Assembly: GCA_964016885.1 (NCBI GenBank)
Contig: OZ024743.1
Coordinates: forward strand, 170,438,001 to 170,502,000
Direction of reading: 5' to 3'
From: Eledone cirrhosa
Taxonomy: Eukaryota
Length of the DNA stretch: 64,000 nucleotides
Part shown: one piece after another, positions 9,040-48,594 of the stretch
Position numbering within the stretch: the first letter of the stretch is position 1
Layout: the number at the start of each line of letters is the position of its first letter
Notes under the pieces: model-generated
The model's database searches: none
The model's input: only the letters and a program-made list of their open reading frames with translations
Told to the model about the DNA's origin: nothing
Position numbers and translations under genes: made by a program

Positions 9040-9234
9040 CGAAGGAAATGTGGTAAGGAACCAGGTGGACCATAACGCACCAAAGTACTCAATACTTAGC
9101 GTAGTAGAGTGGGTAATAGGAACGAGTAGGACCCCGACGGCTGAGCTCAAGCCGTTTCGACGGCTAATTCTGGACTCCAGAATTAGCCGTCGAAACGGCT
9201 TGAGCTCCGCCGTCGGGGTCCTGCTCGTTCCTAT
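9040..9234. repeat. TA-embedded hairpin element (arms 9116-9174 / 9176-9234), each arm carrying the 3' half of an HHR
   Basis: About 59-bp arms with 2 mismatches. GAAA cggct-tgagctc-agccg TC forms stem III and a GUC site. Confidence 0.85.
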
Positions 9235-9259
9235 ATATATATATATATATATATATATT

Positions 9260-9602
9260 TAAAAGTTAAACAAGGTTCAATGAATACATCAAAGAATGAG
9301 TTTTACAATAGATTGGAAGCACTCAACAGTTAAAATGGTTTCCAGAGTTATTAATATTAATTCAAAATATTAACAAAATAGATATTCTTGTGATCAATTA
9401 TATTTTATTATACATATTTCAGAGGTACTGAGTTAAGTTCAACAGTACGTCCTCATCAGATAAAATAGAATGATGCATGACATAGTAGATGGTTAAGATT
9501 CAGTCATGGTAGCCATGACTGAATCTTAACCATAAATGAAATATGTATAATAAAATATAATTGATCACAAGAATATCTATTTTGTTAATATTTTGAATTA
9601 AT
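9260..9602. repeat. Family A PLE terminal-repeat hairpin; HHR on the minus strand at 9401-9467
   Basis: Central palindrome atggttaagattcagtcatgg-tag-ccatgactgaatcttaaccat. 9538-9602 is the reverse complement of about 9356-9421. HHR (rc): tattttat CTGATGA...GAAA tatgta TA ataaaata. Confidence 0.85.
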
Positions 9603-9616
9603 CTATCTATCTATCT

Positions 9617-9772
9617 AAGGCGGGTAAAATTCCCGAGATCCATGGACGAGTTCTCTCCAGCGGTCTCTGTCCCTCATTATCGCTGCCATATCCTGCATCT
9701 CCAACAGACCAGTGTCTGTCCTTAGGGCATCAACATATGTTAACCTTGGTCTTCCTCTTCTAGTGTGTCCAT
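9617..9772 (-). mobile_element. RTE-group family 3 3' end with (TAGA)n tail
   Basis: Shares ccagt.tctgtccttagggcatcaa.atatgt...cttctagtgtgtc with 1438-1499. Confidence 0.75.
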
Positions 9773-9795
9773 GAATTAATATGTATATTTATATA

Positions 9796-9841
<46 letters not shown>

Positions 9842-9849
<8 letters not shown>

Positions 9850-10220
9850 TAAAATAACAGATTAAAGTTTAAGCAAAGAATCGTTGCTTTCACCCTTAAC
9901 GGGATCTTCTGAAACTAACAAAGTCAATCTGTAAACGCAGAAGTGGATATTTCAAAAAACGTTGCAACCGGAGGAAGACAGGAAGACGATACGTCTTCCT
10001 CCGGTTGCAATGTTTTTTGAAATATCCACTCCTGTGTTTACAGATTGACTTTGTTAGTTTCAGAAGATCCCGTTAAAGGTGAAAGCAGCGATTCTTTGCT
10101 TAAACTTTAATCTGTTATTTTAATAAATATTTGCTCTACAGTTCTTATATATTTGATATATATTTATCCTTATCGAGCCCTCTTTGGAATTTAGTCTTCA
10201 AATTTATTATTATTACTATA
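9842..10220. repeat. TA-embedded head-to-head PLE terminal-repeat hairpin (arms about 9842-9979 / 9993-10130) with a CAGAAGA-core HHR in each arm
   Basis: About 138-bp near-perfect inverted repeat, homologous to the 3' end of the PLE at 2208-2320. Confidence 0.88.
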
Positions 10221-10242
10221 TATATATATATGTATGTATGTA

Positions 10243-11158
10243 TTCATTTCATTTCATTTCATTTGAGTTTGAGTCCATGCTCAGGCCAAGTCGAAGACTC
10301 CACCCTCAGAGTCTGGTGTGGTTGCCAGGTTGGATTCTCTGTTTAATTTTGACATGTGTAGGAGCGAGTTTGAGTCAGTTTGTGCTCATTGTGTATATCC
10401 TGGGAGATGGGGTTCATCTCTAATGGTGCTTAAGTATCTATCCAGCTGCAATTTGAATGATTCCACACTGCATCCTGATAGATTTCTGACATGTACCGGA
10501 ATGGAGTTGAATAGTTGTGTCCCTCTAACCAACAGACTTGACTCTCGCAGGGTTTTTGCGGCCTGGCCAGCCCTTTTGTTGATTGGTGGTAGCTGGCAGC
10601 GTCTTCCGTGGCGCAGTGAGTGGTAGGTTTTGATACCAAAGTTTGGCACCTTTTGCTCTATCATTTTCCAAATGTATATAATTTGGTATCGCTCAAATCT
10701 TCTTTCTATTGAGTACATCTTCAAGGTTCTGAGTCTTTGCCAATAGTCCAGGTCCCTCGTTTCTGAGAAGTATGAGGTAAAATTTCTTTGGAGCGATTCC
10801 ATCTTAGATAGTTGGCCCTTTGTTGTTGGTGACCACAACTGAGAACAGTAGTCAATCCTCGGAAGTATCATACTGTTCCAGAGGGTTTTCATTGTTGAGG
10901 TATCTCTTGATTTGCAGGTGTGCAAGATCCACCCGCTGTACTTTCTTGCAGTAAGACAGACTGAGTCAAGGTGTTCTCTGAATTTTAGGCTGGTTCCCAT
11001 GTGGATGCCTAAATCTTTCACACACTGTTTTTCCATTATTTGTTGTCCTGATGGGTTTCTGTAGTTTGTTGTATTTTTCAGATTTTGATCTGTTCCGTAA
11101 CGAATTAGTTCAAACTTCTTATCATTGAACAACATGTTGTTTGTTTCCTGCCATTTGT
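10243..11158 (-). mobile_element. CR1/L2-group LINE, 3' part of ORF2 with (GAAAT)n tail
   Basis: ORF 10386-11135: FNDKKF...VKDLGI...PRIDYCSQLWSP...ESLQRNFT...YWQRLRTLKMYSIERR. Confidence 0.85.
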
Positions 11159-11811
11159 GGTTAGGTCCTTTTGTAAGGCCTCTGTATCCACCTGTATATA
11201 TATATTTATATGTATGTATGTATGTATATATATATATATTTATATGTATGTATATATATATATTTATATGTATATATATATATATTTATATGTATATATA
11301 TATATATTTGTATGTATATATATATACATATATATATTTATATGTATGTATATATATAGTTATAACTCATAATTGATATATAAACAACTAATACATACGC
11401 AATTTATTAATATATATAGATATTTATATACATATAACCTATCCTAATGTAATAAGATAAAAATACTTACAACCATAATTCTTCATATAATTCTAATTGA
11501 TTATATATACTATATTATAACTCATAATATAGGTAAATAAACGTTGCCCCCCAAATTAACGTAAATACCAGCCCTTCTTCTTTTCTCTTCTTTCCTATGC
11601 ATACAATAACTTATCATAATTATTTAAATTTTTCATAGCGTCTAAAATAACTTTTTTTCATCCCTTTTACATAAACCTCATTTGCATACTCATCTTAATA
11701 ATTTGAAATATCTGAGTTTTCTTTCTTCTCTTCCCTTCACTATCCAGTGATAACTTGAACTGTTAAGGTATATTATCCTTGGTTATGTCAAAATTTATAA
11801 AACACACCTCG

Positions 11812-11873
11812 TATTTTATCTGATGATAGCATACCAAAATTGTTGGTACCCTTGAAATATATATAATAGAATA
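11812..11873 (+). ncRNA. Type I hammerhead ribozyme, family A
   Basis: tattttat CTGATGA tagc ataccaa-aattg-ttggtac cctt GAAA tatata TA atagaata. Confidence 0.75.
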
Positions 11874-12179
11874 AATATGGTTTTATAAATATAGTTTCCA
11901 TTTATTTAATATCATTGTATATATATTTATATGTACGTATATATATATAATACATATATAATTTATATAGATATATATGTATATATATATATCAATAATA
12001 TTGATAAATGGAAAATATCTTTATTTATAAATAAATTTATTAATATTATTAATATTAATGATACTCCAGAAAAACCCGTTCACTGCTTCTAATTTGTTGT
12101 AAATTAACTTTGTTGAATAATCAACGAACCAAATAACTCATTGTTTATATATATATATATAAATAATACATATATAGGC

Positions 12180-12478
12180 ACATGGAGGCACAAAAGGTTG
12201 TGAGTTCAATTCTCAGACCGGTGAGCAAGACACTTTATTTCACATTGCTCCAGTTTACTCAGCTGTAGAAATGAGATGATAGGGACTGGGGTCCATATCA
12301 CTCCACTGCAAAGTGGTCGTGGAGGTGCCACGGCAAAAAAGCACGCAGCACTCACTGTAAATGAGGTTGGTGTTAGGAAGGGCATCCAGCTGTAGAAATC
12401 AAGCCAGAAACAGTTCCTGTCCCACCCTTGCAAGCAGGGAAAAAGCGGACGTAAAATGAAATGATGATGATGATGATA
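12180..12478 (+). mobile_element. CORE-type SINE fragment joined to the RTE 3'-UTR-type repeat
   Basis: GTGAGTTCAATTC B-box and GAGCAAGACACTTT...TTGCTCCAGT, then GGAAGGGCATCC and a (GAT)n tail. Confidence 0.7.
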
Positions 12479-12627
12479 TATAATTTATAGATATCATCAT
12501 CATCGTTGAACCTCTATCTGCCACACTTTCATGGGTTAGACGGGAGTTGTCCCATTTGAGGCAATATTGGTCACGTGACCGTGTCATATATATATATATG
12601 AGAAAAACCACAAACCCTCCATCTCAA

Positions 12628-12671
12628 TTCTACTTTTGAAAAGCAGAAGAAGTGCGAAACCGGTAAAGGAA
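12628..12671 (+). ncRNA. Hammerhead ribozyme, U3:A8 core variant, in a TA-flanked repeat (about 12600-12800)
   Basis: ctt TTGAAAA gca-gaagaag-tgc GAAA ccgg TA aag. Confidence 0.6.
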
Positions 12672-12794
12672 CCAAATAAATATATATATTTTTTTTAAAG
12701 ACTCCAGTTGCATTTTCGATTTCATCTTTTTTCCTTATACTTTCACTCGTGTAGGACACCTCGGTTATTTTTCATTTTGTAAAAAAAACCTCAC

Positions 12795-12845
<51 letters not shown>

Positions 12846-12904
12846 TAACCCATGCTAGCGTGGAAGATGGGCGTTAAACGAAGATGATGATATATATGTG
12901 TATA

Positions 12905-13602
12905 TCTGTATATATATAAAGACGAAGTTTTCTGTATGTGTGTGTGGACAATTTTTAATGAGGGCTCATATATTCTAAACCATTCATGTGATTTCTTTGA
13001 AATTTTTTACAGAGCTTCTTGCACAAAACCTGTACATGATCTACAAAGGCTTTCAAAAATCGATATTGGTGCCTTTGGAGACATTAAAAAAGTTTCGGTT
13101 ATTTGTGTGAATTTTCGTGATTAAGTAAGACAAGAGTTATCTTTAAGTAATACAAGAGTTATCTTTCGTAATTCGGCTCATTCGGATTTTAATTTACTCT
13201 TTGTACTTGAAACAAAAGGTACGCTTCCTTGAGACTAACAATATCATTTTGTATATTTCACAACCAGCAATTACTAAGTTAAGTTATAGATTTGACATTG
13301 TATAATTTATCATTTCAAGCTTGATGTTCATACATTAAGTGATGTCATAACTTTTACAATATTATGCTTTGTACATAATAGTGTCTATTATTCACTTCAC
13401 TTTTCTATTACATGATGCGCTTTTACTGTTATCAAAAAAGACACCGAGCTCACATATTAATTATTTCGCTGGAATAGTGCCTAAGGTTTTCATGTTTACA
13501 TAAAGTACGTTTTTCTTCTATGTATTCAAATTTACTTTGTTTAGTTTAATGAGCTACATCGAAAGCTACTTGAACCGTCCAAAGGACGGGTAGTTTAGCT
13601 AG
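12905..13602 (+). mobile_element. Non-autonomous Helitron
   Basis: 5' a|TCTGTATATATATAAAG; 3' hairpin CCGTCC-AAA-GGACGG then ...CTAG|t (A/T target). Confidence 0.8.
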
Positions 13603-13914
13603 TATATATATATATATAATACATATATAATTTATATATATGTGTATATATATATATATATATATCAGTGGCAAAGGGTAATCTGGAAAGCAGGGCATGC
13701 AGTTCAATCGCCATGGCGGAAAGTGGGGCTGTGCAGCCTTACCCCCCCCCCAATTCCCTCTAAATGACTCTCCCGGTCAAAGCCGTATGTAGTGTTATCT
13801 AGTGTGTGTGTGTGTATATCTTTTTATGTGTCTACGATTTAGTAAGCAGCCAAAATTCTGCTTGCTTCAACCAACGCAATTGATCAACTCAAGATTCTAT
13901 GCACCCTTCGCACC

Positions 13915-13953
13915 TGATATATATATATATATATATATAATACATATATAATT

Positions 13954-13998
<45 letters not shown>

Positions 13999-14280
13999 CA
14001 TATATAATTTATATATATATAAATATATATATAATTTATATATATATATATAAATATATAATACATATATAATTTATATATATATATATACACAATACAC
14101 AATACATATATAATTTATATATATATGTATATATATATATATATAATACATATATCATTTATATATATATATGTATATATATATAATACGTATATAATTT
14201 ATATGTATATATGTATATAATACATATATAATTTATATGTATATATATATATATATAATACATATAATTTATATATATAT
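13915..14280. repeat. (TA)n / TAATACATATATAATTTA low-complexity minisatellite
   Basis: Directly visible tandem motif, also at about 11930, 13610 and 14900-15075. Confidence 0.9.
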
Positions 14281-14281
14281 A

Positions 14282-14905
14282 CTAGCAGTAAGGCATTGCC
14301 CTGGGCTGCTCAGTAGCTGTGTTAAAGTTACAATGTTAAGTTCCTTTCTTGGCTTAAAAACTGTAGAGTCTACAGTGTAGACTTTCATACGGTACTTTTG
14401 ATTAATATTCCCTCAACCAAGAGGATACCTTATGAAGTTAAGAAAACATAACCCTAACCCGAATGTTAAAACAAAAGAGGATGCTGGGGATAAATACTGC
14501 ACTGGTAATCTATTAACAAAAATCGAAAATGTAAACACTGCAACACTTGTCTCAGAGAAAAACATCAGTTTCACCAAACTATCAGTTATTTTGAAACAAA
14601 GAAATTGGATGGACATGAAAAACAAAAAAAAAATGCGTTATCTGTCTGTCAATGAAAATCTCATAAGGCTTTATTCGAGATCAATGTTTTTTTTACAAAA
14701 CATTTGCTTGTTTTACGGTGTATTCAAATAGGCTTGTTTTCAACTAAAAACATTGTTTTAAAAGAGTTTTTAATGGAAATGAAGCAAAATGGAAGCCTAA
14801 TGTTGAAACTTCGAACTCATGAAATTTGAACGTACAGTTTAGGAGGAGATGTGTGCTGACCGTTTTAGTAGACAGACAGCCAGATAACCTCAGTTTTATA
14901 TATAT
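14282..14905 (-). mobile_element. Non-autonomous Helitron
   Basis: a|CTAG terminus at 14282 with a GC-rich subterminal segment. The opposite end (rc) is TATATAAAACTGAGG followed by CTGT repeats, typical of Helitron 5' ends. Confidence 0.6.
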
Positions 14906-15689
14906 ATATATATATAATACATATATAATTTATATATATATATATGTATATATATATATGTGTGTATGTGTATATATATAATGCATATATATATATATAT
15001 AATTTATATATATATATATATAATACATATATAATTTATATATATATATATAATACATACATAATTTATATATATACGCGTGTGTGTGTGTACATATGAA
15101 GAACATTTTTTGTTTGTCTGTTTTTCTCCAATGCCTCTAAAATCCAGTGGCCCAATCATATGCATGAATAGGTTTTCGTCATACTTGGTTGTCATGGAAT
15201 GAAAGAAACATAAAGAATGTGAAGCAAGTGAGTCATATGCGTTCAAACATCCCTCCCCTTCCTCTGCGTTCAACATATTAGCCATCCTCTCATCTATCGG
15301 CTACAGCATGCGTGGTCATATATTTATATTACTTACTTATGGTCATATCTACTTCACATTTAACCTGTGTGTATATATTCTCCATATCTTTCCCTTATTC
15401 ATGTATATATGCTACCTGTTTGTATACAAGCTCCAAAATCAAATTGATTTATGGAAACACTACTAAAAATAACATTTGTGAAACTTTGTAATTGTTTTTT
15501 GCATATTCATTTCCATTAGTTTTTGTTGTGTTTTCCACAAGATAGCTCAAACAACTCAAAGGCTATGTCAATAGAGAGCAAGAACAGAATACTTACGAAT
15601 TAAAAAGATTGCCTCAAGAACTGTTAATTCAAATTTCCTCAAATTGTCCAAATTGAGGTGCTGAAGAATGGAATGGTGAGTCAATTGGA

Positions 15690-17088
15690 TTGATGAAATT
15701 AAATACATGAACAACCAGAATTCTCGAGGAGACTGCTGATTGGTACAACTACTGAATCAAGACACTTTCTTCAAAATATCCAGAAGTACAATAATGCATT
15801 CCAAATGACATCATTTGGTGCAAATGTCATCCATGAAGGTGGCTTTATGCTCATTTTCAAGATCCAAGAGCAATTGGACCACTTTAGCCACTTTCAGAAG
15901 AAGATATGAAAACCCAAGCACTGACAAGGTATGAAAGGAATAAGGAAACATATTGCAACTACAAGATATGTTACATAGCTATATTAGAAGTTTCAAATTT
16001 GACCTAGGAAATGCACCTGTAGAAGAACTCACAGTACTGATGAATGCTGACAGGAGACCACCAGGAGAGCATTCATGCTGTTATAATGCACCTGAATGTA
16101 ATGAAGTTGCTATTGTAATATCTGGAGAAGAGCATGGTGAACGTGACATAATCCTTCATAGGAGAGATAATCAGTTACAGAGAATAAATGAAACATCGCT
16201 CTTATGATGTCCTCCAGTATGCTTTAATTTATGTGAATGGAGAAGATGGACACCATTTTAAAATTCCTCAAAAAGATGAAAAGGAAAATACCAGGAAGAC
16301 AGTCTTGGGTATGGATTTTTACTCCTATTTTATGGTTCAAGACAATTTCAATTTCCTCCACAGAATGCAAAATTTGTTCCATCAATTTGCTGTGGACATG
16401 TATGCAAAAGTTGAGGCAGAAAAATTAGCATTAATCAGATATCACCAGAAAAAAATACAAAATGTTTTGCCCTGCATACAAAAAGATGACTGCATGACGC
16501 CTGTGAGCGAAGTGCAATGCTGCATGGTAGTGAAACGTGTGTTGTGACTGTAGAGGACATGTGTAGACTGGAGAGAAATGAAGCAACCAGGCTTCGTTGG
16601 ATATGCAATGTAAATGTGAGAGAGAGGCAGGGCTTGAATGAGCTGAGGGAGAAGCTAGGTTTAAGTATCAGTTGAAGGTATCAATAAGTCGTTTTATAGT
16701 CTTTGATTTTTTACAGAACAAAGAAAAATTGATACTATTTGAAATTTATCTACACTCCAGTTTTATCCATATACTATTTACAGTCCATCCTAACAAAGCA
16801 ACACTTCAGAAGCAATGTTATGCGGTATATTGCTGTGTTTCAGATGACATCCTTTGGAGATGAAAAAGATCATACTGACTATGGTTATTTCACAACATCC
16901 AAGGCCAATGCTACCATTTAATCCCCAGCCTAATAAAGGAGTTTTTTTTTTATGTCTCCCTCACACACACTCACACACACACATTACGGTCTCACCTCAT
17001 ACCAGACAACACATCCAATACAGTCATTTTCTCTTTTATCTGTCTTCTCTTAACTGTTCTCCCGAGTGAAGCGGAGTATTTCAGCTAG
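15690..17088 (+). mobile_element. Helitron RepHel pseudogene fragments plus Helitron 3' end
   Basis: YNNAFQMTSFG, GEH..YNAPECNEVA, RDIIL, HRSYDVLQY, LFHQFAVDMYAKVE. Second FQMTSFG fragment near 16800-16860. 3' end ...tcagCTAG|t at 17088. An RTE scrap interrupts at about 16470-16670. Confidence 0.85.
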
Positions 17089-17099
17089 TGTTCTCACAG

Positions 17100-17375
17100 G
17101 TACAAGCTGAAGCATATAGACAGTATGCCCTCACCCCGCTCCCACTGCAAAGTGGTCATGGAGGTGTCACGACAAAAAAGCACCCAGTCCACACTGTAGA
17201 GTGGCCGTGTAGGCGCCATGTAAGAAAGCACCCAGTACTCACTCTAAATGAGGTTGATGTTAGGAGGGCATCCATCTGTAGAAATCAAGCCAAAATCAGT
17301 TCCTGCATGGGCAAGACATGGTCACCTGACCTGACACTGCCCACAACAGGACAAACCCGTCTAACCTATGTTAGA
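17100..17375 (+). mobile_element. RTE 3'-UTR-derived repeat
   Basis: Homologous to 45905-46135. Confidence 0.8.
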
Positions 17376-17821
17376 TGTATGAGGTTATAGTGAATAAGTT
17401 CACTATTTTCATTGGTAAGATAAGTTAAGCTGAATGTCTCTTTTTCACTTTGTTCATCATGAGTGAATAGCTAGGGTAGCTGATCATTTATAATTCAAAC
17501 TTCAGTAAGATTAAAATTATTGTTTATTTACACATCTATGCACGTTTCAATACAACACTATATTATACATCTATAATAGAGAAAAATGAAAAATGTTCAG
17601 TTAATTAACTTCATGTAATTGCTTTACTTCAGGCTGTATCTCTTCAAGAAGTAGAAAAGGCAATAATATTTAACATCAAAAAGAAAAGCATGAATTTCAT
17701 AGGATTCCTTGTACAAAAGCAAAAAAGCAATATTATATACTTATGTTCATAAGTACATATATGTATATAAATATATATCCATATATATATACGTATATAA
17801 ATATAGATATATATATATATA

Positions 17822-19260: not shown

Positions 19261-19306
19261 TATATATATAATCCTTATTGAGCCCTCTTTGGATTTTAGT
19301 CTTCAC

Positions 19307-19342
<36 letters not shown>

Positions 19343-19844
19343 CGTGCTGAATCTCTTGAGACTTGTGTAACTATGAAGGAGTAAGTCAGTTGAATTTTAC
19401 TCTTTCAAAGGAGGTGGATTTTTAACTGTATCTCACGCCCTTAAGGGCTGAATTTGTATTCATTTAGAATCTTACCCCTCAATTTAAAAATAAAAAAATC
19501 ATGAAAAAAATTGTCCACAGGGAAGAACAGTGGGTTGTTCGGAGGGTAGAACAGCTGATTCCGTCCAATCACAAGGCACAGGCAAGAACAACAGAAACAG
19601 CAGCAGCCACAGTGGTGTTGACAACAGCAGCAACAACGACAGTGACAGTGGTGGTGACAACAGCAGCAGCAACTTGAACAGTAGCACCAGCCTCTCAATG
19701 TCAAACTACTATGAACATTTTCCATCATTAGAAGGATCAGGCACCACCGCCACCTCAATAACAACAATAACAGCAGCAACAACCATAAAGAACCCAGGGA
19801 GCAACAACTGTAACAGCAGCAACACAGAAAAAAAAAGAAAGACC

Positions 19845-19875
<31 letters not shown>

Positions 19876-24373: not shown

Positions 24374-24417
24374 ATTATTATTATTATTATTATTATTACT
24401 ATATATATATATATATT

Positions 24418-24871
24418 TGGTTTTTGAATTTGTTTTGCAAAATTTCTTATCTGAAAATGTGTGTTGAAACAGATATTTTATACTTTGGGAGGGTCATGCT
24501 GCCAATAAAAACGCACGCCCCTATTGGTTTTCACTTCAATTTATTTCAGGTTGGTTGGTTGTTTCAATAACCGGAAGGTTGTTTATATATTGTCGAAGCC
24601 CTTTCATCACACATTCTGTGACCTCCTCAGTGACTGGGTTTTATTTTGTGTCTCTTCTTTGTTCATCTTGTTTTTGTGTTGTGTGCTATATCACAAAAAC
24701 AAGATGGTATAGGATTGAATAAAGCAGAGACATAAAATAAAAAAGCCAAGTCACTGAGGTTACAGAATGTGTGACGAAAGAGATTTTACAATATATAAAC
24801 AACCATCCAGTTATCGAAAATCAACAGGTGTGTGTGTTTTTATTGGCAGCATGACCCTCGCAAAGTATAAT
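24418..24871. repeat. Head-to-head PLE terminal-repeat hairpin in (TA)n; HHR at 24592-24634 (-) and a degenerate copy at about 24750-24790 (+)
   Basis: Diverged inverted repeat centred near 24685. rc reads gtca CTGAGGA g gtcac-agaatgt-gtgat GAAA gggct TC gac. Distal end resembles 44784-44860. Confidence 0.8.
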
Positions 24872-28300: not shown

Positions 28301-28314
28301 TATATATATATATA

Positions 28315-28623
28315 ATTGTTTCTACTTTTGGCACAAGGCCAGCAATTACCCAGTGCATTACAGGTACTTTATTTTATCTACCCCTTAAGGATGAAAGGCA
28401 AAGTTAACCTCGGCGGGATTTGAACTCAATAATAATTATATAATTGTTTCTACTTTAGGCACAAGGCCAGCAAATACCCAGTGCATTACTGGTACTTTAT
28501 TTTATCGACCCCGTAAGGATGAAAGGCAAAGTCAACCTCGGCGGGACTTGAACTCAGATCGTAAAGGGATGTAACTATGCTGGAAAGCATGGCGTCCGAC
28601 CCTCTACCGATACTGCCAATCCA
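28315..28623 (-). mobile_element. S1 SINE plus tandem B-box-truncated S1 copy
   Basis: Nearly full copy at 28442-28623; truncated copy at 28315-28427. Confidence 0.88.
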
Positions 28624-29162: not shown

Positions 29163-29477
29163 ATGCATTTGTGAGTTTTATATCGAATAATAATAATATT
29201 CGATTTGTTTACAAACAAACAGCCTTATTACACTATGTGTTTTAGATGACCATCGCCATCTTTTGTTCTAGCAGTGACACAGAGAAACAAGCAACAATCT
29301 TATTGTTTCTAGGTTATTACAAGAGAATCAATCAACAATATTATTGTCAATTCATTCTCTGTGTCTCTTCTAGAACAAAAGAACGATGATGGTCATCTAA
29401 AACACATCATAATAAGGCTGTTTGCTTGCAAATTAATTGAATATTATTATTATTCGATATAAAACTCACAAATGCAT
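29163..29477. mobile_element. Palindromic MITE-like element
   Basis: About 120-bp imperfect arms: ATGCATTTGTGAGTTTTATATCGAATAATAATAATATT ... AATATTATTATTATTCGATATAAAACTCACAAATGCAT. Confidence 0.75.
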
Positions 29478-31803: not shown

Positions 31804-32244
31804 GGGCGGTGGATTGGCAGTATCGGTAGAGGATCAGACACCATGCTTTGACGCATAGAGTTATGGCCCTTTCCATTCTGAGTTCAAATCCCGCTGAGGT
31901 CAACTTTGCCTTTCATCCTTACGGGGTCGATAAAATAAAGTACCAGTAATGTACTGGGTAATTGCTGGCCTTGTGCCAAAAGTAGAAACAATTATTATTA
32001 TTATTGAGTTCAAATCCCGCCAAGGTTAACTTTGCCTTTCATCCTTACGGGGTCGATAAAATAAAGTACCAGTAATGCACTGGTTAATTGCTGGCCTTGT
32101 GCCAAAAGTAGAAACAATTATTATTATTATTGAGTTCAAATCCCGCCAAGGTTAACTTTGCCTTTCATCCTTACGGGGTCGATAAAATAAAGTACCAGTA
32201 ATGCACTGGGTAATTGCTGGCCTTGTGCCAAAAGGAGAAACAAT
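31804..32244 (+). mobile_element. S1 SINE followed by two tandem B-box-truncated copies
   Basis: Full copy 31804-31993; copies 32006-32118 and 32132-32244 both start GAGTTCAAATCCC after (ATT)n. Confidence 0.9.
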
Positions 32245-32257
32245 AATTATTATTATT

Positions 32258-33927
32258 GTTCTTTGAGTCTCAGTCATTGATGTTATTTAACTGGAAAGTT
32301 TGTTGAAATCAATATCAAGCCGCTACCTGCAGCCTCAGACATTCAGGATCTATCGGAGGGTTCTTGCTGTTCCCAGCAAGCATGCCTTTTGAAGTGTTCC
32401 AAAAAGCGGGACTGGACTAATCTTCTTTAAACTCTTGGAAACTCTTTGAGATAGTACCTAGTGCTCCTATGACAATCGGGATGACCTTGATTTCATGGCA
32501 GTTCCAAATCCTGTTTAACTCCCACTTTAAATCCTGGTATCGGTTAATTTTCTCCCTCTCCTTTTCTTGCACTCTCGTGTCTACATCTACAATCAGGCAC
32601 GATCTTTTTTCCTTGTCCAAAACCACCAGGTCAGGCCTATCGTGTTCTAATTTCTTGTCCGTCTGTATCCTAAAATCCCATAGCACCTTCACCTGATCGT
32701 TTTCTATCACCGACTCTGGCTTATGCTCATACCACTTCTCAGAATGTGGTAAATTGTTTACTTTTCATCAGTGGATCACCCTGTCTATCACATCATGTCT
32801 CCAGCCTTTATAGTGAGTCTGGGCTAGGTGTTTACACTCGGATACAATGTGAGCCGCAGTCTCCTCTCTCTCTTCACAGATCCTACACAGTGAGCTATCC
32901 TCCTCCTTGTCAATATGGTGTTTCACCCACTTCGTTCTGAGGGTTTGCTCTTGCGCAGCCATTAGCATTCCTTCTGTAGCTTTTTTAAGGTCTCCTCTTT
33001 TTAACCAGTTCCGTGTCTGTAGATCTCTAAATTCCGTTTTCTTAAAGAAGGTGCCATGAAGGGATTTTTTATGAAGGTTGCTCTTCCTCCTTGGACATCC
33101 CCTGGTCTCTTGTCTTCTCCTTCAGTACAATCTTGAGCATTGGCTCCCTACTGTCAGTCACATATTTGTGCATGTTGTTTTTCTCCATCTGAACACAGTC
33201 CTCTATGCTGATAAGACCTCTTCCACCTTCAGATCTCTTTAAGTAGAGTATATCGACATCACTCCTCTTGTGGAACATGTTGTAGATAGTCAATAGCTTC
33301 CTAGTCTTCCTATCCATTTCTTTTTGTTCAGCAACATTCCATTTCAGAATTCCTGCACTGTACCTAATAATTGTTTCTACTTTAGGCACAAGGCCAGCAA
33401 TTACCCAGTGCATTACTGGTACTTTATTTTATCGACCCCCATAAGGATGAAAGGCAAAGTCAACCTCGGCGGGATTTGAACTCAGATCGTAAAGGGACGT
33501 AACTATGCTGGAAAGCATGGCGTCCGACCCTCTACCGATACTGCCAATCCACCGACCTAATAATAGACACAGCTCGGGAATTCATTGCACTTATGACATT
33601 CCTACTATTTAGACGTGATTTTAATACGCTCCTTACTCTCCTAATGTACTCAGATCTTATCAATTCCTTCATTTTTTTGTTCTTATTGTCATCTACCTCC
33701 AGAACACCTAAATATTTGTATCCCTCTTCAGTGTTAATTTCCTTTATCATCTCACCTGTTGGTACCGGGATTCTGTTGCTTCTGCTCAATTTACCCCTCT
33801 TCATTACTAGGACTCCACACTTATTAATACCATATTCCATACATATATCATTGCTGAAAATGGTGACAGTGTCAACAAGTACATCCAACTCCTTCTCACT
33901 CTTCCCGAAGAGTTTAAGATCGTTTTC
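32258..33927 (-). mobile_element. R4/Dong-clade element copy 1 (RLE-type), interrupted by a SINE
   Basis: YKYLG, GGRGL, AAQEQ, CRIC...ET.AHIVSEC, RHD, RPD...D..EK..RY; (AAT)n tail. Confidence 0.9.
33372..33554 (-). mobile_element. S1 SINE with 10-bp target-site duplication (TSD) ACCTAATAAT
   Basis: The empty site is visible in copy 2 at about 35077-35087. Confidence 0.92.
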
Positions 33928-33943
33928 ATATTATTATTATTAT

Positions 33944-35667: not shown

Positions 35668-35694
35668 TTATTATTATTATTATTATTATTATAT

Positions 35695-38200: not shown

Positions 38201-38589
38201 GAAATCCGTTCTGATCAAGAGGCCTATCACTCTAAGAAAATCTTACTGAATAAAGAAGAAAGAAAAGAATTCCTTTCATGTATAAATCTGGATATTTGCA
38301 TTCCTAATAAATCTGTTTTACCATACTATTTGTTTTTCTAATTTAGCTTTATTTATTCCATGTTCAACTTACCCAACCCACCATATAAACAATGTGAAGT
38401 CAATTTTGGTGAAATCTCCACCCCAATAAGTAACTGAGGCACAGGAGAGACATGGTCTCACATGAAATAAAAAATGGGGAACAGACTCATATATCAAGAA
38501 CTGGTATCTTTATATTTTCATATATTACTTTCTTTTCTTTTTCTTCTTTTCTTATATATATATATATATATATATCATCATCATTATAA

Positions 38590-41500: not shown

Positions 41501-42145
41501 AGTGCCAACATTAAGTGTTGCAGCTCTGAGATGCGACGTCTTCATATTTTTGTTCTTTTTCCTGTAGTGCGATTGCTTGAAGACGGTTGCGGGGTTCTCG
41601 CACATGGACGCACCAGCCACCCCACTGCCGTACGCAGCCCTAACATAGTGTTATCGCTGTTTACGCAGTTGTTGCAATTCTCAATTGTTGTGCTCATACT
41701 TTTAGGCAGTAGTATATATACTGGTTGGATGCCCTTCCTAACACCAACACCACTTTACAGCATGGACTGGGTGCTTTTATTCGTGCCACCAGCACTAGAG
41801 AGGTCGTCTTACTGGACTCAGGGGCCCTATCTATCCCTCCATTTTACAGCATGGATTAGGTGCTTTTATTCATTCCACCAGCACTAGAGCGGTTGCCTTA
41901 CTGGACTCAGGGACCCTAACCACCCCTCCATTTTTACAGCATGGACTGGGTGCTTTTATTCGTTCTACCAGCACTAGGGAAGTTGTCTTACTGAACTTAG
42001 GAGACTTCTCTACCCGCACCAATTTATTCAGAGTGGTAACTCTCCTAGACGGGCTGCCTACCATTTCGGCTTACGAAGCCTCCGTCCACCCCTTGTCTGT
42101 TCTATGATATATTCATGAGGGAGTGGTTAGCATACAGCGTCAGGC
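38590..42145 (-). mobile_element. RTE LINE family 1, near full-length and frameshifted
   Basis: TLNVGTL, VQEVRW, GDFNG, DLEKAFD, QGSVL, YADD, then a Cys/His insert and HGSETW. The upstream region has three tandem repeats of about 120 bp (41750-42000). Confidence 0.93.
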
Positions 42146-42323
42146 ATGTATACCGATTGTGGTGGAGGTGATAACGAAAATGGCTTATACATAAACATTT
42201 ATATGCAAACACTTTCAATGGCGTATACATACAAATTTTATATGCAAACACATTCAACACAGTTTATATCGCATACAAATCTCATACATATATACATATA
42301 CAAATCTCATATATACATATATA

Positions 42324-44862
42324 TAAGTCTGCAATCAGAATATTAAACTTAGCACTACTGGACATTGCTGAGTTTTTGAGTATCAGGTATTTGGAGGCCA
42401 TGGGTTTAGCATAGTGTGAGTGGAGAATTTGGGCTGGCTCGTCTATAGTGTTAATCCAGAGTTCCGTGTCTAATACCAACAAGACCCATATGCGGAGCAA
42501 ATATAGCTAGCAACTACAGGATCTCCTACTTCCTCTCAATGGTTATACGCCCCATAATCAAGATGTCCCCAGATGTATGTGACAGTACAGATGACCTCCT
42601 CAGCAGAATCAGTGAGTGCAACAAAAACAGGAACCTATCCAACTGCATAATAGGCAGCATGGATGTGGTATCACTGTACCCATCCATTAACATTGATTTT
42701 GCTGTGGAAAAATGTGTGGAGATGATCATTGAGAGTGAGGTGGAGTTCTGCGACCTCGACATAGATGAACTGGGCCTCCTACTTAGACTTAACTACGACA
42801 CTGACTACCTAGACGTTTCTGCCCCAGTAGACCCATAAGAGGTAGACCCCACACCATACCCTCAATGGCTAAAAAGACTCCCATGGGAAGGTGGATTGGG
42901 TGAATCAAAGCTATACGGATCCCCAAAACAATGATCAGGTAAGAAAAATGGTCGCACATGCAATAGAGGCTAGTATAAAAACTACCCTAAAGGGCCACAT
43001 ATTCAAGTTCAACGAGAAGATCTACACCCAAAATGAGGGAGCAGCCATTGGCGTCAGCATAGCTGGTGACGTTGCCAACCTTTTTATGGTATGGTGGGAA
43101 AGAAGACTTAAAGATCTCATTAATGAGAGCTCCATAGACCTCATCATGTACTCTCGTTACGTAGACGATATCAATATAGTTATAAGAACATCCCCACAAG
43201 AGAGCACTAACAAGTTTGATTTAGAATGTAGCACAATGGAAAGCATCCAGCAGATAGCTAATTCCATACACCAGAGTATAACTGTAACTATCGACTACCC
43301 TTCCAAACACCCTAACAATAGAATACCTGTATTAGACACGGAACTCTGGATTAACACTATAGACGAGAGAGCCCAAATTCTCCACTCACACTATACTAAA
43401 CCCATGGCCTCCAAATACCTGATACTCAAAAACTCAGCAATGTCCAGTAGTGCTAAGTTTAATATTCTGATCGCAGACTTAGTACGAGTGATGAAGAACC
43501 TGTCCCGCATGTGCAACCCAAACGAAATGGAAAGACACATCCAACACTTCATCAACCGCATGCAGTTCTCTGGCTACAACCAAAGAGACAGAATCAGAGT
43601 ATACGAAGGAGCAACGGAGAAGTATAAGACCCTCATAGAACTGGACATGAAAGGAATTTGCCCATTATACAGGAGCAAATCATGGAATAGCTTAGATATG
43701 GCTAGACATAAGATAGGGAAAGCCACCTCATGGTACAACAACCAGAGATACCAGAGTGTCATGTTTGTGGATGCTACCCCTGGAGGGAAATTAGCTAACC
43801 AGTGTAGAAAGGCCCTGAGAAAACCCACTTAAAGATTGGGGTGGTAGAAAAGCCAGGAACCACCATAAAATCCCTGATCAGCAAAACCTACCCTTTTAAG
43901 AAAACCCACTGTACTAATAGGAAATGTATCATATTTAAGGTAAACCCCCGGATAAACTGTAAAACTAGAAACGTAGTCTATAGCATAAGATGTACAGAGG
44001 GTACTTGCAGAAACATGACAACAACATACATAGGCGAGACAGCTCGTAGCATAGGTGAAAGGATAGACCAACACTGGGGGGAACTAAAAGGACGAAAAAA
44101 CGGTTCAGTACTATACGAACATGCCAGACAACAACACGACGGTAACAAAGACAACATAGAAATTAGAATAATATCTAAACATAGAAATTACCCAGCAGAT
44201 AGGCAAATCAGAGAGGCCAGTGAAATAGAACTTAGAAGGCCAAGGCTAAACAGAAAAAAATGAATGGAATAACAACACCCAAACAAACAACACTGACCTA
44301 AGAGAAGCATAAATAAATAAATAGATAAATAAATAAATAAATACATACACAAGCACAATAACAACAAACATATAAACACACACTAGTAAAGATAGAATAC
44401 ATTAACCAATACACAGTCACCCAATCACGAACACACATCAAACAAAACACTATACACACACGCAAACGCATGCGCAAAGAAGACAAAAAATAAACAAATA
44501 AATAAATATATAAACAGACTAAATAAAGATGGCATAGAAAATACAATGCAACGGGAGGAAACAATAGCACCACTGACGGTGTTGCAGATGTGCAACGAAA
44601 GAACTTTGATAAACTATATATATATGTGTTTGTGTCTATATTGTATCTGTATTTTTGACCGTTGGTCAGTCAATGGCAACATTGAGGACCGAATAAATTA
44701 AATTAACCGATATAAAAGACACAGAAGCAAAAAGCGAAAACCAACCAAACAGTGAGTGTGTTCTGTTATTAATTCTGGCAATATTACACAAATATGACCC
44801 TCCCCAAGTATAACAATATTTGTTTCGACACACGATTTCATATCAAAAATCTCGCAAAACTA
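42324..44862 (+). mobile_element. Penelope-like element, 5'-truncated: RT, C-terminal GIY-YIG endonuclease and terminal repeat with HHR
   Basis: SMDVVSLYPSI, Q..GAAIG...ANLFM, RYVDDI, IPVLD; NCKTRNVVYSIRC...YIGETAR..ER..QH...REA...LNRK. HHR-like CTGACGGt gttgca-gatg-tgcaac GAAA at 44573-44600. Flanked by (TA)n. Confidence 0.93.
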
Positions 44863-45779
44863 TATATATATATGATTTTTTAATATCAATCAAGCCAAAT
44901 TTGCAAACTAAAACATACCAAAAAATCAAAATATGGTCCATGTAGTGGATAGATATATTCTTTTCAGGATGAATGATAAAACGAATGATGCCAGAGTTGT
45001 GATGTTGACAATGTTTGTTTTACAATAACAAAATTCACTTATTGGTACATTGAATATTAAGTAATAAAATTGCGACAGCAATTATCACTACATTATTTTC
45101 TTGCTAGCTACTTCGAGCTAGCGTGTATGCATGTATCAATAAAGCGATACAATAGAAGTGAAATAACAGGAAGCCGAAAGGATAGATAAATTGTTGTAAT
45201 GAAATATATAATTAAACCTACTATATGTGTGTGCGTTTGTTTATCCTTAGTTTATGTTGCCCCTGTAGTTGGTCAATCTGTTGAGCAGGTATGAAATGTG
45301 AGGGTCTGTAAGGCTAGGAGAGAGAAAGAGTAAAAGGTCTGTAGATAGTGAATGGCTACATCGTTAACCTCTCACAGACTGCTGCTTCGGGGTCTCTCTG
45401 GTGGACACTCTAAGTACTTGTATTTATAATAACCCTATAACTGGAAGGATGTGTATATGGGTTGATTTATGAGTAGCCATGTGTGCTTCATTTGTCAGGA
45501 ACCTGGGGGTCACAGGTCAGGTGGTGTGTATGTTTATCATAGTTGTCTCTTGACGGGACAGTGGTGGGAACTCCCAACGGTGGGTGGTTTTAGAGGTGAG
45601 AACCCTCAGATTTGGTTTCGAATCTTCACCAGGTAAAAGGTAGTAGTATTCCGTTACAGTCCAAATATACAGAAAAGTCAAATTGTACCAACTCTGGCAG
45701 CACTGCTTGACAGTTTACAGTTGTAGCCGTAGGTCAATTCTAATCCAGTAGTTTTCGATGGAAACTGCGGAGTGGGGAG

Positions 45780-46185
45780 GCCCAAGAAGACCTGGGTTAA
45801 GGTGATAAAAGCCAACCTTGCCCAATTACACCTCTCAAAGGCGATGACACACGACCGTGACCTCTGGCGTCACGCAATAATACAGAAGACCCGAACCCCC
45901 ACGGGTACAAGCCGAAGCTGAAGCATATAGACAATATGCCCCCACACCCTCCCACTGCAAAGTGGTCGTGGAGGTGCCACGGCAAAAAAGCACCCAACCC
46001 ACACTGTAAATGAGGTTGGTGTTAGGAAGGGCATCCAGCTGTAGAAATCAAGCCAGAATCAGTTCCCGTATGAGCAAGACAAGGTCAGCCGACCGGCTAC
46101 TACCCACAACAGGACAACCCGTCTAACCCATGCTAGAGTGGAAGAACGGACGTAAAATGGTGATGATGATGATGATGATGATGAT
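45780..46185 (+). mobile_element. RTE 3' end (same family as 54.2-55.8 kb)
   Basis: Reverse complement of about 54208-54655. Confidence 0.88.
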
Positions 46186-47019
46186 ATACACACACACACA
46201 TAAAATGATGATGTTGATGATATATATATATATACATATATAACATTCATTTTCTACGCTAGCATGAGTTAGATCAGGTGACTGTTTCTTACTCATATAG
46301 GACTGTTTCTGGCTAGGTTTCTATGAATGGATGCCCTTCCACATTTACTGTGTGTGCTGGGTGCCATGACTCCTACACGACCACTTACAGTGTGAGCTGG
46401 ATATGTTTTTTTCACAGTGTAAGGGTGGTGTGAGCAGGAATGGGTGGGGGTATAGTGGTTAGGAGGTGCCTACTAGGTGTATGTTTGAGTCTCTGATTCA
46501 AATTGATTAGCACATCTTCAAACTTGTCCTCATATCTAGGGGTATCTGGTGGTTGATATGTGACACATTATTTTGAGTTGCTTTATATTTACTATTAGCG
46601 TGTCATGAGTTGGAATGTGGTGATCACCAATGTTGGTTTAACTGACTTTGGCTTTGTATCTGCTGTAGCCAAGTCGGCTATCTTACAATCTTTTCTGCCA
46701 TGTTTAAAAAAGACTGTTGTTACACAGCTGCAGTTTGTACTGCTTCTGTATACTGTCTCCGCTTCATCACCATAATCCTAGACAATGACCCTATGGGCTG
46801 TGTTGTTTGCTCATGTTTGTTTTGGCTGGAGTATTTGGGATGAGCAGGTTGGGCACAGCTAGCATAGAGTCTGGGGTGTGCAAACTGCAGCAGGTCCCTT
46901 TCTTGTAGATCTTACAGAGTACTTGGGCTTTCTTTTTCCCAGGGTCTCTGTTTTTCCTAGTTCTGGTCTTCTTTGCTTTAGCATTTACATATATATATAT
47001 ATATGTGTGTGTGTAGAAG

Positions 47020-47459
47020 TTCTATTTAAATTGTTGGGATACAACAAGCAAATATTTTTATAACTGATATAAAGCACTCAACAAATTATTGGAGTAAAAA
47101 TACGATATATTAACAAATGGAAACTATATTTATAAAACCATATTTATTTCATTATACATATTTCAAGGACACCAAGTTAAATTATGGTGTGCTTTCATCA
47201 GATAAAATATAATATAGATCAGTTTTATAAATAAATAAATATTGACATACCCTTAAAGAATGCGACCGGGAGCTTCCAACAGAAATGGTCGCATTCTTTA
47301 AGGGTATGTCAATATTTATTTATTTATAAAACTGATCTATATTATATTTTATCTGATGAAAGCACACCATAATTTAACTAGGTCTCCTTGAAATATGTAT
47401 AATGAAATAAATATGGTTTTATAAATATAGTTTCCATTTGTTAATATATCGTATTTTTA
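47020..47459. repeat. Family A PLE terminal-repeat hairpin (arms 47095-47267 / 47287-47459) with HHRs at 47145-47209 (-) and 47345-47409 (+)
   Basis: 173-bp near-perfect inverted repeat with a 19-nt spacer, flanked by TA/TG repeats. Confidence 0.92.
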
Positions 47460-47625
47460 TATATATATATGTATATATAAATATATACAAATGTAATCTG
47501 AGTTTTTCGAATATTAATAATAACATTCGATTCATTTGCAATTATGCAAAACAACCCTCATTTTTATAGCCATGTCAGTAGAATGAACTCTTCATTCTTG
47601 GTCATGTGTTGGGATGTAAACAGAA

Positions 47626-47669
47626 CTGCAGACACTAATGTTTCTGGGTATCACCATTCATCAGTACAG
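47626..47669 (-). ncRNA. Type I hammerhead ribozyme with GUC site (element about 47480-47827, hairpin 47687-47827)
   Basis: rc: ctgta CTGATGA a tgg-tgatac-cca GAAA ca-ttag-tg TC tgcag. Confidence 0.8.
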
Positions 47670-48594
47670 CTCACTGTTCACCTGCCAACTGTCAGAGCTA
47701 GTGAAAATATATGCTATTTTTTAAAATATACAGTGACTGATCGGCCTGATTTGCATATTAGCAGACTCGCTGATCAGTCACTGTATATTTTAGAAAATAG
47801 CATATATTTTCACTAGCTCTGACAGTTTAAATATATATGATGGTGATATATGTATGTATGTCCCTTGTTTAATGTGATAAACTGTAACAGCAACCAACAA
47901 CACCAGCCATGGAAGTCAACAGAGGGAGCATTCATTTAATGTACCTTCCACCCATCATCCCACTGTACTATATACCCCCCCCCCCCCCCCCTACACAGCA
48001 CAATCATCTCTTCTGCTGTCCAATACATCACAGTTGTCTATTGAGAGGCAGAAAACTACACCTCCCATAACACTTATGCCACCATCACTCTAGGCTTGCT
48101 TCTCTGAAAATGCACACATGGTTGTTGTTATTGTTGTTGTTGTGGCACATCTTCAAGCCACATGGTGCCTGAAATTATAAACCTTGGAGTAACTTTGATG
48201 GCAGTGTTGGTGCTGTTGAGCTTGTTGTGAATAGTGGTTGTGAAGGTACTTGTAATGGCAATGATTACGGTGGTGGTGGTGATGATGATGGAGATGATGA
48301 AGACAGTGGTGATAGTAGTGAATGTAGTGGTGACAGTGGTGGTGATGATGAAGTTAGTGGTAGTTGTGAATGTAGTGGTGGTGATGAAGACAATGGTGGT
48401 AGTGATGATAGTGAATATAGTGGGGAAGATGGTGATGGTAGTGAAGTTAGAGGATGAAGAGACATTTATAAAGTCCCGGCTCTCTTTAATTATTTTCAGT
48501 CTTATGATTTTTAAAGCTTTCTCCTCAATAAATTTTATCGTTTTCAAAATGTTAACCCTTCTTTTTCTTCTTCTTCGCCCCCTTATTTTTATAG

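Follow-up and report, generated by a model that had tools for sequence, protein, structure and literature searches.

Six head-to-head hairpins in the window

The window analysed here, a 64-kb stretch of the Eledone cirrhosa genome, was compared with itself, and all six palindromes that a preliminary description had reported were recovered at the coordinates claimed for them. Palindromes scoring at least 100 bits numbered seven (the seventh, beyond the six reported, lies at 29163-29477), whereas none was found in any of 20 block shuffles. The reported layout of one longer and one shorter arm, TA-type flanks and spacers of 1-30 nt was accurate for all six elements; the unpaired spacers measured 1, 3, 13, 13, 19 and 29 nt, and the right flank of 9260-9602 is (TCTA)n. 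The elements, termed E1 to E6, are laid out as follows.

9039 to 9234, minus strand: E1 hairpin; tailed arm 9174-9039 (minus sense), 1-nt spacer, tail-less arm 9176-9234 (plus); half hammerhead only
9115 to 9039: E1 tail, 77 nt, within the tailed arm
9260 to 9602, minus strand: E2 hairpin; tailed arm 9509-9260, 3-nt spacer, tail-less arm 9513-9602
9842 to 10219, plus strand: E3 hairpin; tail-less arm 9992-9842 (minus), tailed arm 9993-10219 (plus), tail of about 89 nt
24418 to 24871, minus strand: E4 hairpin, old and diverged; tailed arm 24678-24418, 13-nt spacer, tail-less arm 24692-24871
47020 to 47459, minus strand: E5 hairpin; tailed arm 47267-47020, tail-less arm to 47459
47480 to 47827, minus strand: E6 hairpin; short arm 47772-47827, which stops short of the ribozyme

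The families of E1-E5 have inverted terminal repeats of which one side only is tailed. The window copy of E6 has a long arm without a tail and a short arm with an internal end, and the 19-nt loop of E5 is part of the tail-less arm.

It is extremely unlikely that these palindromes are artefacts of assembly or of long-read fold-back. In an uninformative check, the E3 window joint was absent from four read-derived sets (three contig sets and one RAD read set, the best sets holding 63-68% of the window's words and some records being filtered out), and no listed piece spans a whole element. However, the arms differ by 1-30% and end at family-specific sites in different flanks. Moreover, read-derived contigs show many other arm-to-arm joints, E3 sequence running from arm to arm in 14 of the 15 joints listed, with 147 further, and RAD reads from a separate study with the same species label carry tail-less ends into (TA)n in 1,477 (E1) and 1,488 (E3) cases. 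Beside the E1 joint, RAD reads stop at cut sites.

Hammerhead motifs in the elements

Hammerheads were scored with custom descriptors, since Rfam gave no hammerhead family among 49 weak matches. The strict type I descriptor matched six sites in the window and, held to the same score, none in any of 30 shuffles. Four of the six matches fall inside the elements.

9459, minus strand: type I hammerhead core in E2, long (tailed) arm only
47201 (minus) and 47353 (plus): consensus type I hammerhead cores in E5, one per arm
47664, minus strand: type I hammerhead core in E6, long arm only

A type I hammerhead had been claimed for all six elements; an intact core is present in three of them (E2, E5 and E6), which makes the claim only partly right. 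In the tail-less arm of E2, an internal deletion takes out the CUGAUGA half. A whole hammerhead in both arms, expected at 9842 and 47020, was found at 47020 but not at 9842, where both arms of E3 form a hammerhead-like fold around the core CAGAAGA (U4 to A), which is not a whole consensus ribozyme. This U4A core is common to nearly all E3 family copies listed. E1 holds only the GAAA-stem III-GUC half, and CUGANGA is absent from the element and from its 3.4-kb coding parent, L308; for lack of that motif in the parent, two ideas were dropped, one that stem II of a hammerhead is formed by the centre of E1 and the other that the absent core is provided by splicing. Neither hammerhead descriptor matched E4. 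By eye, its long arm has a stem I mismatch and its short arm a 3-nt core deletion, and the minimal hammerhead is kept at 16 of 30 E4 family loci. The terminal repeat carries a type I hammerhead in E2, E5, E6 and the E4 family, a variant core in E3 and no full hammerhead in E1. The hammerhead would be a passenger.

Families and coding parents

At least five unrelated families had been proposed, and five groups stand: only E2 and E5 are related (64% over 192 nt, E 8e-15), and the other four elements show no pairwise match. The proposed homology of two elements to Penelope-like elements (PLEs) in the window also held, E3 matching 2211-2320 (86% over 110 nt) and E4 matching 44794-44860 at 84%, over only 67 nt.

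2208 to 3518, minus strand: decayed, 5'-truncated PLE related to E3; GIY-YIG remnant 3518-3159, 3' UTR, terminal repeat cut at 2208
42324 to 44860, plus strand: 5'-truncated coding PLE, distant relative of E4; RT about 42560-43829, GIY-YIG 43808-44260, end at 44860

The second of these has an inverted internal segment, 42324-42476, which is a copy of 43329-43481. The presumed PLE origin of the elements was supported, four families being traced to RT/GIY-YIG PLEs. The 3' end is continuous with an ORF encoding an RT followed C-terminally by a GIY-YIG domain for E1 (L308), E5 (L318) and E4 (L309, with GIY-YIG upstream also in L223, L238 and L243), and the link of E3 to a PLE coding part consists of the EN remnant at 3518-3159 only. 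For E2 there is no upstream ORF in L310 or L311 and no coding parent was found; the RT in L309 was rejected as its parent because it belongs to a nested E4-type element. No coding parent of E6 was found among the copies examined. In L317 an inverted GIY-YIG piece adjoins E6, its kinship to E6 being unproven. The E6 family is built on a hammerhead unit of about 440 nt that also occurs head to tail, and two hammerheads 440 nt apart were seen in one of four tandem-like loci checked.

The RTs of L308 and L316 are 46% identical, and each shares only 20% with the window RT. The latter matched RVT_1 at E 1.8e-4, below the Pfam cut-off; Pfam gave no match for L308 or L316, and a PDB search of the parent RTs returned nothing useful. 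Sequence-atlas matches carry RVT_1 and GIY-YIG on minorities of members. The assignment to EN+ PLEs is based on domain order and terminal structure.

Joints vary from copy to copy

Exact tail matches numbered 24,956 for E1, 14,236 for E3 and 3,662 for E5, a first look gave 1,629 candidate copies of E2, and candidates numbered 4,989 for E4 and 1,919 for E6. Conclusions on joints were drawn from position-ordered and tail-anchored samples, since a query with the whole element is bound to bring back joints like its own (30 of 30 loci for E1). The position samples came from the first 10-53 Mb of one contig (C1). The joint classifier gave false matches on AT-rich sequence (L288, L304, L107, L117, L033, L035, L040); its calls were corrected by hand in the E1 position set only, where two were changed by eye. 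E4 joints, with 28 of 30 loci read, were left out of the counts.

Compact hairpins were present at 23 of 30 position-sampled E1 loci, with 22 different joints. For E3, 12 of 30 loci were hairpins with 12 joints, and for E5, 16 of 29 insertions with 16 joints. E2 showed 20 joints in 21, and the E6 window joint occurred in none of 29 copies. The tail-less outer end, by comparison, is fixed (E1, 21/23; E3, 12/12; E5, 14/16). If the share of 23 in 30 is applied to the 24,956 exact tail matches, there would be about 19,000 E1 hairpins, a rough extrapolation from the one chromosome end sampled.

Within a copy, both arms carry the same subfamily variants. At polymorphic sites, arm mismatches against the shuffled mean were 3 versus 23.1 in E1 (14 copies), 19 versus 93.3 in E5 (27 of 39 loci), 6 versus 23.6 in E2 (15 of 28) and 14 versus 40.7 in E3 (14 of 14), and in each family none of 2,000 shuffles was as low as the observed value. 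This concordance fits one RNA molecule, one source locus or later gene conversion alike. Given the variable joints and the shared variants, every insertion makes its hairpin afresh, and the hairpin does not propagate itself as a unit. Of the two outcomes foreseen in the preliminary description, the near-unique joints of the sampled copies speak for one-off junctions and do not support a self-propagating class.

A non-autonomous hairpin retrozyme that inherits its joint, at least for a recurrent E1 subset, is accordingly very improbable. It would account for the 342 loci that carry the E1 window joint exactly, for one E5 joint seen in 4 of 31 copies of a query-biased set, and for the membership of E6 in a retrozyme-like 440-nt unit. 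However, the E1 joint makes up about 1.4% of the tail matches, is found in none of the 30 position-sampled copies, and sits on at least four arm haplotypes in both orientations, the tail lying on one side in 22 and on the other in 8 of 30 copies. In addition, 27 near-identical E1 copies show 31 single-arm changes, mostly private, with no arm-specific variant inherited, and the hammerhead of E1 is incomplete. The recurrence of one E1 joint at 342 loci is read as a hot spot.

Arm geometry and the origin of the hairpins

The tail-less arm extends further 5' than the tailed arm in 11 of 12 E3 and 9 of 16 E5 copies, and the tailed arm lies entirely inside the tail in 5 and 4 of them, respectively. 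In 10 of the 12 E3 copies, the tailed arm ends inside the tail or within about 15 nt of the tail-less start site. At L318, a 71-nt tailed arm is joined to a 3.8-kb tail-less coding arm, and at L174 two different families are joined directly head to head. L317 and L037 were dropped as cross-family joints for uncertain kinship and a TA spacer. Two tails were seen at L290 and L375/376.

Abortive PLE insertion by simple fold-back from the tailed end, as had been suggested, is contradicted, because the tail-less arm mostly reaches further 5' and the tailed arm often lies within the tail. Its rescue by later recombination between the arms, which would flip the loop in some copies, is very unlikely: it would explain the same joints in both orientations (E5, and E1 at 22:8), but flipping needs paired arms, the nine position-sampled copies with the tailed arm inside the tail and L318 have an unmatched tailed arm, and the class with the further-reaching tail-less arm is the majority in E3 and E5.

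Our preferred reading, which we regard as reasonably probable, is that each element is a PLE 3' end inserted twice, head to head, in (TA)n with a joint that varies per copy, both target strands likely having been nicked and two cDNAs primed on the same RNA. The element's enzyme would nick both strands; one cDNA would start at the far 3' site of the RNA and give the tailed arm, and the other would start some 55-95 nt upstream and give the tail-less arm. Tail-primed reverse transcription that stalls near the second start site would leave a plain inversion, and transcription that passes it a palindrome. The two cDNA 3' ends would then be joined through microhomology of 0-7 nt or a few extra bases, after which repair would complete the duplex. 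Twin priming, with its proposed joining of two cDNAs, is suggested here by genomic patterns, and the loops of zero to three nt suit fold-back equally well as end joining. LINE-1 twin priming likewise has two priming events on opposite target strands, with microhomology at the junction of the inverted 5' part. There, the position of the second priming site is variable and the arms are free of overlap; here, each family has a fixed second site, and one sequence is often present in both arms.

The closest biochemical parallel is the Poseidon PLE of Anolis, PAc, whose protein, a predicted dimer, nicks and extends both strands of AT-rich DNA from two RNA start sites whose separation is the tail, hammerhead cleavage being dispensable in vitro (PMC11167929). 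The main text and methods of that study are without head-to-head cDNA joining or hairpin insertions, in which PAc differs from our elements; later steps are left open there, and no difference in start site between strands was found, which speaks against the model.

A hairpin DNA intermediate is unlikely. A single cDNA would fold back, giving a tail on both strands, one of which an endonuclease would trim at integration; self-priming with endonuclease resolution has been proposed for PLEs in passages of PMC3846280 and PMC8557442. Such an intermediate explains the arm concordance, the tight loops and the two-tail copies and, if trimmed on either strand, the tail on either side of one E1 joint and the same arm patterns. 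Against it, long-range fold-back aimed at the tail would be needed often (10 of 12 E3 copies; 3.8 kb in L318), no cross-family joint such as L174 is predicted, and in PMC11167929 the tail is linked to a pair of RT start sites, with target priming on both strands.

Preferred 5' ends and a possible short template

E1 copies stop at a preferred 5' point, 17 of 30 ending 132-144 nt from the 3' end and only three extending beyond. A TATA-like box lies 29 nt upstream of this point in E1 (L308), two other E1 parents having a weaker one, and 31 nt upstream in E2 (L310, L311). Neither E3 nor E5 showed a TATA-like box, and the 5' ends of E3 range from 61 to 851 nt without a preferred stop. In a check for a cap signature, G directly precedes the putative +1 in 7/27 (E1), 3/14 (E2) and 3/5 (E5) broken arms. 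Truncation of a long mRNA, implied by the term abortive, fits the 9842 family but suits 9040 and 9260 poorly, because their copies stop at a preferred 5' point. In E1 and E2, and perhaps E5, the templates may mostly be short non-coding transcripts from a TATA/initiator that longer copies have in their terminal repeat, with predicted starts about 138 nt (E1) and 264 nt (E2) from the 3' end. Hairpins, whose sequence would start there or further in and leave out the TATA-like box, would be mostly dead ends. For E1 and E2, we infer such a template with less assurance than twin priming.

Comparison with known elements

Inverted PLE ends with a one-sided tail are already known; in the published literature searched, no genomic argument for twin priming turned up. 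Canonical EN+ PLEs with an inverted 5'-truncated pLTR, as described in passages of PMC3846280, PMC8557442 and PMC2377424, are alike in the head-to-head copy, the palindromic junction, the tail at one end, the AT-rich or (TA)n targets and the order RT then GIY-YIG. Unlike these, most E1 and about half of E5 insertions are ORF-less hairpins of 0.1-0.45 kb, the families have thousands to tens of thousands of copies, the tails measure 55-95 nt instead of 30-40, and twin priming accords better with the arm statistics than the self-priming suggested there.

In Schistosoma PLEs, pairs of minimal hammerheads on opposite strands, 100-700 bp apart, were read as truncated PLEs, in a one-sentence mention without junction analysis in the relevant passage (PMC4209133). 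Minimal type I hammerheads lying close together on opposite strands are the common feature, and the short palindromic stem III is likewise that of E2, E4 and E5. The U4A core of E3 and the half ribozyme of E1 fall outside the variants described in that passage. Non-LTR retrozymes, as outlined in parts of PMC7229834 and bioRxiv 10.64898/2026.07.22.740005, are also non-coding, PLE-related and provided with a type I hammerhead. However, they are direct tandem repeats giving circular RNA, whereas E1-E5 are inverted and four are coding PLE ends; head-to-tail hammerhead units of 170-400 nt are absent from E1-E5, and E6 alone partly fits.

How the inverted ends and the one-sided tails of PLEs arise is described as unsolved in PMC11167929 and in a passage of PMC8557442. 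With tens of thousands of insertions that are both young and short, the question can be approached by counting across the genome, by way of arm lengths, joints and shared variants; in the first samples, twin priming is favoured. Automatic annotation would probably mislabel such hairpins as MITEs or SINEs.

Potential for double-stranded RNA

Transcription had been predicted to give a long dsRNA containing one sense ribozyme. The structure is sound (a stem of about 173 bp, z -38.5), but the ribozyme lies inside the stem, where it would be sequestered, and only 47020 has two consensus cores. An RNA-like read set, from another organism, covered none of the elements. A wider proposal, which we hold tentatively and consider doubtful, is that PLEs integrate by priming twice on a single RNA, a reaction that would routinely leave perfect hairpins in the genome, and that in this animal short transcripts from the terminal-repeat promoter form a SINE-like class to which some twenty thousand palindromes or more, ready for ADAR, could be traced. 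These might be a main source of the excess of long dsRNA reported for octopus. According to passages of PMC5625713, octopus has an exceptionally high share of dsRNA-forming loci (4.4e-3), and heavy editing affects Penelope in lizard and a palindromic repeat in frog. The hairpins described here are accordingly a concrete candidate substrate.

Palindromes and hammerheads in the window

The window, C4:170438001-170502000, comes from the 3.0-Gb Eledone cirrhosa genome, in which TA microsatellites and LINE fragments abound. The preliminary description listed six hammerhead-bearing palindromic elements, here called E1 to E6, from at least five unrelated families. All six were found to be local palindromes, with spacers of 1, 3, 13, 13, 19 and 29 nt, and 20 block shuffles of the window contained none. 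A seventh, overlooked palindrome lies at 29163-29477 (arms 81% identical); its ends match the terminal region of E6 family copies at 80% over 46 nt, TA flanks are absent, and neither descriptor detected a hammerhead.

Palindromes and single-arm copies in the window
9039-9234, palindrome E1
9260-9602, palindrome E2
9842-10219, palindrome E3
24418-24871, palindrome E4
47020-47459, palindrome E5
47480-47827, palindrome E6
4236-4440, - strand, single-arm copy of the E2/E5 clade, type I hammerhead core at 4396
11793-11925, + strand, single-arm copy of the E2/E5 clade, type I hammerhead core at 11820

With a strict type I hammerhead descriptor, the window has six matches and 30 shuffles have none. 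The claim of a hammerhead in every element held for E2 (long arm), E5 (both arms) and E6 (long arm), but not for the others: E1 has the second half of the motif alone, and its coding parent was found to lack the first half; E3 has a hammerhead-like fold in both arms, with U4 changed to A throughout the family; and the window copy of E4 is decayed, a minimal hammerhead being retained at 16/30 family loci. E2 is related to E5, and E1, E3, E4 and E6 are mutually unrelated. The remaining two strict matches are the single-arm copies, with intact cores, and another E2-like arm lies at 11981-12130. The E3 family core reads CAGAAGA for CUGANGA in nearly all copies shown (for example window 10061 and L077-L155) and overlaps a splice-acceptor-like stretch; the fold represents a variant of the core or else an inactive ribozyme. 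Several E5 family copies, belonging to different subfamilies, have one G-to-C change in hammerhead stem II of a single arm; other variants, unlike this one, occur in both arms.

Family size and coding parents

Exact 30-32-nt tail matches numbered 24,956 for E1, 14,236 for E3 and 3,662 for E5, with 0 matches to reversed patterns; first-look candidates numbered 1,629 (E2), 4,989 (E4) and 1,919 (E6). E1, E3, E4 and E5 are tied to coding Penelope-like elements (PLEs) through longer copies. L308, a 3.4-kb E1 copy, contains an RT ORF and a GIY-YIG-like ORF, flanked by the tailed end and, at the opposite side, by a tail-less repeat in inverted orientation; among its Atlas look-alikes, RVT_1 and GIY-YIG are annotated on minorities of members. 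Locus L318 is the equivalent link for E5 and L309 for E4, and for E3 the link is a GIY-YIG remnant in the window copy at 2208-3518. E2 and E6 yielded no coding parent. The E6 family has a unit of ~440 nt that also occurs head-to-tail and is in this respect retrozyme-like.

A decayed PLE-type GIY-YIG fragment lies just upstream of E1 (8038-8340, +). Near position 3170, L308 contains a partial 5' copy of the E1 repeat, followed by a splice-donor-like motif. At L314 (3014-3955), an E1 end in matching orientation comes after the 3' UTR of another GIY-YIG element, possibly a template jump.

Joints between the arms

Whole-element E1 queries returned an identical or near-identical joint at 30/30 loci, because the query itself selects them. 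E1 joints were therefore sampled by genomic position from tail matches, with hand-corrected classification: a compact hairpin was present at 23/30 loci, and 22 distinct joints were counted among these, the window joint not being one of them. Sampled likewise, E3 had an adjacent inverted arm at 12/30 loci (12 joints) and E5 at 16/29 insertions (16 joints; two rows were merged as one insertion). For E2, sampled via the long arm, 20 joints were counted in 21; the window E6 joint was found in 0/29 E6 copies. The exact window E1 joint recurs at 342 loci, ~1.4% of the E1 tail count; in the initial 30 loci, the tail side was split 22 versus 8 and at least four arm haplotypes were present, and the joint reads as a hot spot rather than a lineage.

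With joints that differ almost copy by copy in the position samples (E1 22/23, E3 12/12, E5 16/16), the suggested self-propagating hairpin class is not supported. A PLE origin with newly made joints is very probable. The elements are a miniature and very abundant version of an insertion structure already known from PLEs, and not a new class that replicates itself. For PLEs, PMC3846280, PMC8557442 and PMC8969392 describe inverted copies with 5' truncation, palindromes arranged head to head, tails on one side and insertion into (TA)n, and PMC4209133 reports Schistosoma hammerhead pairs on opposite strands, 100-700 bp apart. Retrozymes, in contrast, are direct tandems in the relevant parts of PMC7229834 and bioRxiv 10.64898/2026.07.22.740005. 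The passages found of an Octopus vulgaris repeat paper mention neither palindromes nor hammerheads. In a search of the open literature, with subscription papers, Repbase and supplements outside its scope, neither a study of PLE hairpins at junction level nor an explanation of them by twin priming was found.

Formation of the hairpin

The tail-less arm ends at a fixed internal TA-like site followed by (TA)n, at 77 nt from the 3' end in 21/23 E1 hairpins, 89-95 nt in 12/12 E3 and 80-88 nt in 14/16 E5 copies. Arms within a copy match at subfamily-diagnostic sites far above shuffled pairs in four of four families tested (0/2,000 shuffles as low as observed, each family), which implies one template, one source or later homogenisation.

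Simple fold-back from a tail-primed cDNA, as previously suggested, would work only if the tailed arm extended 5' as far as its partner or farther. The tail-less arm extends further 5' in 11/12 E3 and 9/16 E5 copies, which contradicts this origin; in 5 E3 and 4 E5 of these copies, the tailed arm lies entirely within the tail, so that neither arm can have served as template for its partner. At L318, a tail of 71 nt is joined to a tail-less coding arm of 3.8 kb, and L174 directly joins arms of two families.

PMC11167929 shows for a PLE protein that both strands of AT-rich DNA are nicked and extended, that synthesis starts at two RNA positions with the tail between them, and that insertion proceeds in the absence of hammerhead cleavage; the protein is predicted to form a dimer. 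We lean towards twin priming, in which two target-primed cDNAs, one per flank, would be joined head to head, the tail-primed cDNA often halting near the second start site (~55-95 nt upstream of the 3' start site on the RNA). The tailed arm ends within ~15 nt of that site or before it in 10/12 E3 copies, which suggests that both cDNAs use one RNA. In the main rival model, hairpin DNA forms by fold-back and is then trimmed on one strand or the other; this accounts for the same arm patterns but requires frequent long-range fold-back aimed at the tail. Hairpin copies make the PLE integration mechanism countable.

In a coding PLE, 42324-42476 is a TA-flanked inverted copy, at the 5' end, of the internal RT segment 43329-43481; we read it as the inversion process acting on a long RNA whose second end is internal. 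A larger inverted repeat (55826-56224 / 56415-56793; 84% over ~400 nt, 191-nt spacer) has TA-rich outer flanks. At several loci, different PLE families adjoin in one TA tract (L012, L018, L037, L262), so TA tracts gather serial insertions. Another short repeat forms 126-128-nt tandem units (28309-28556, 31879-32258).

Template RNA

Among 30 position-sampled E1 copies, 17 stop at 132-144 nt from the 3' end, 10 earlier and 3 beyond. E2 arm ends cluster near 264 nt, and many E5 arms end near the equivalent point; E3 has no preferred 5' stop like that of E1 and E2. At their stop point, E1 and E2 have an initiator-like A, preceded by a TATA-like box at 29-31 nt; no TATA-like box was seen in E5. The base before the putative start is G in 7/27 (E1), 3/14 (E2) and 3/5 (E5) broken arms, which is no clear cap signature. 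The sequence pattern suggests that the templates may be short terminal-repeat transcripts mobilised in trans, and the resulting hairpins would lack the box. A pLTR with TATA and initiator is noted in a passage of PMC3846280. Against short templates of this kind stand the missing stop in E3, the missing box in E5 and the internal TATA-less promoter of Drosophila Penelope (PMC2377424), given which some hairpins might still be transcribed.

Possible double-stranded RNA and reality of the palindromes

The E5 transcript is predicted to fold into a ~173-bp stem enclosing the ribozyme (-264 kcal/mol, z -38.5); since the ribozyme would lie inside the stem, cleavage within the hairpin is unlikely. The hairpins are a possible, candidate source of dsRNA. 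The palindromes are unlikely to be artefacts, because their arms have diverged and their ends are family-specific. Searches of four runs did not recover the window E3 joint, the best runs covering 63-68% of the stretch's words; read-derived contigs contain many other arm-to-arm joints, and in RAD reads from a separate study tail-less ends abut (TA)n.
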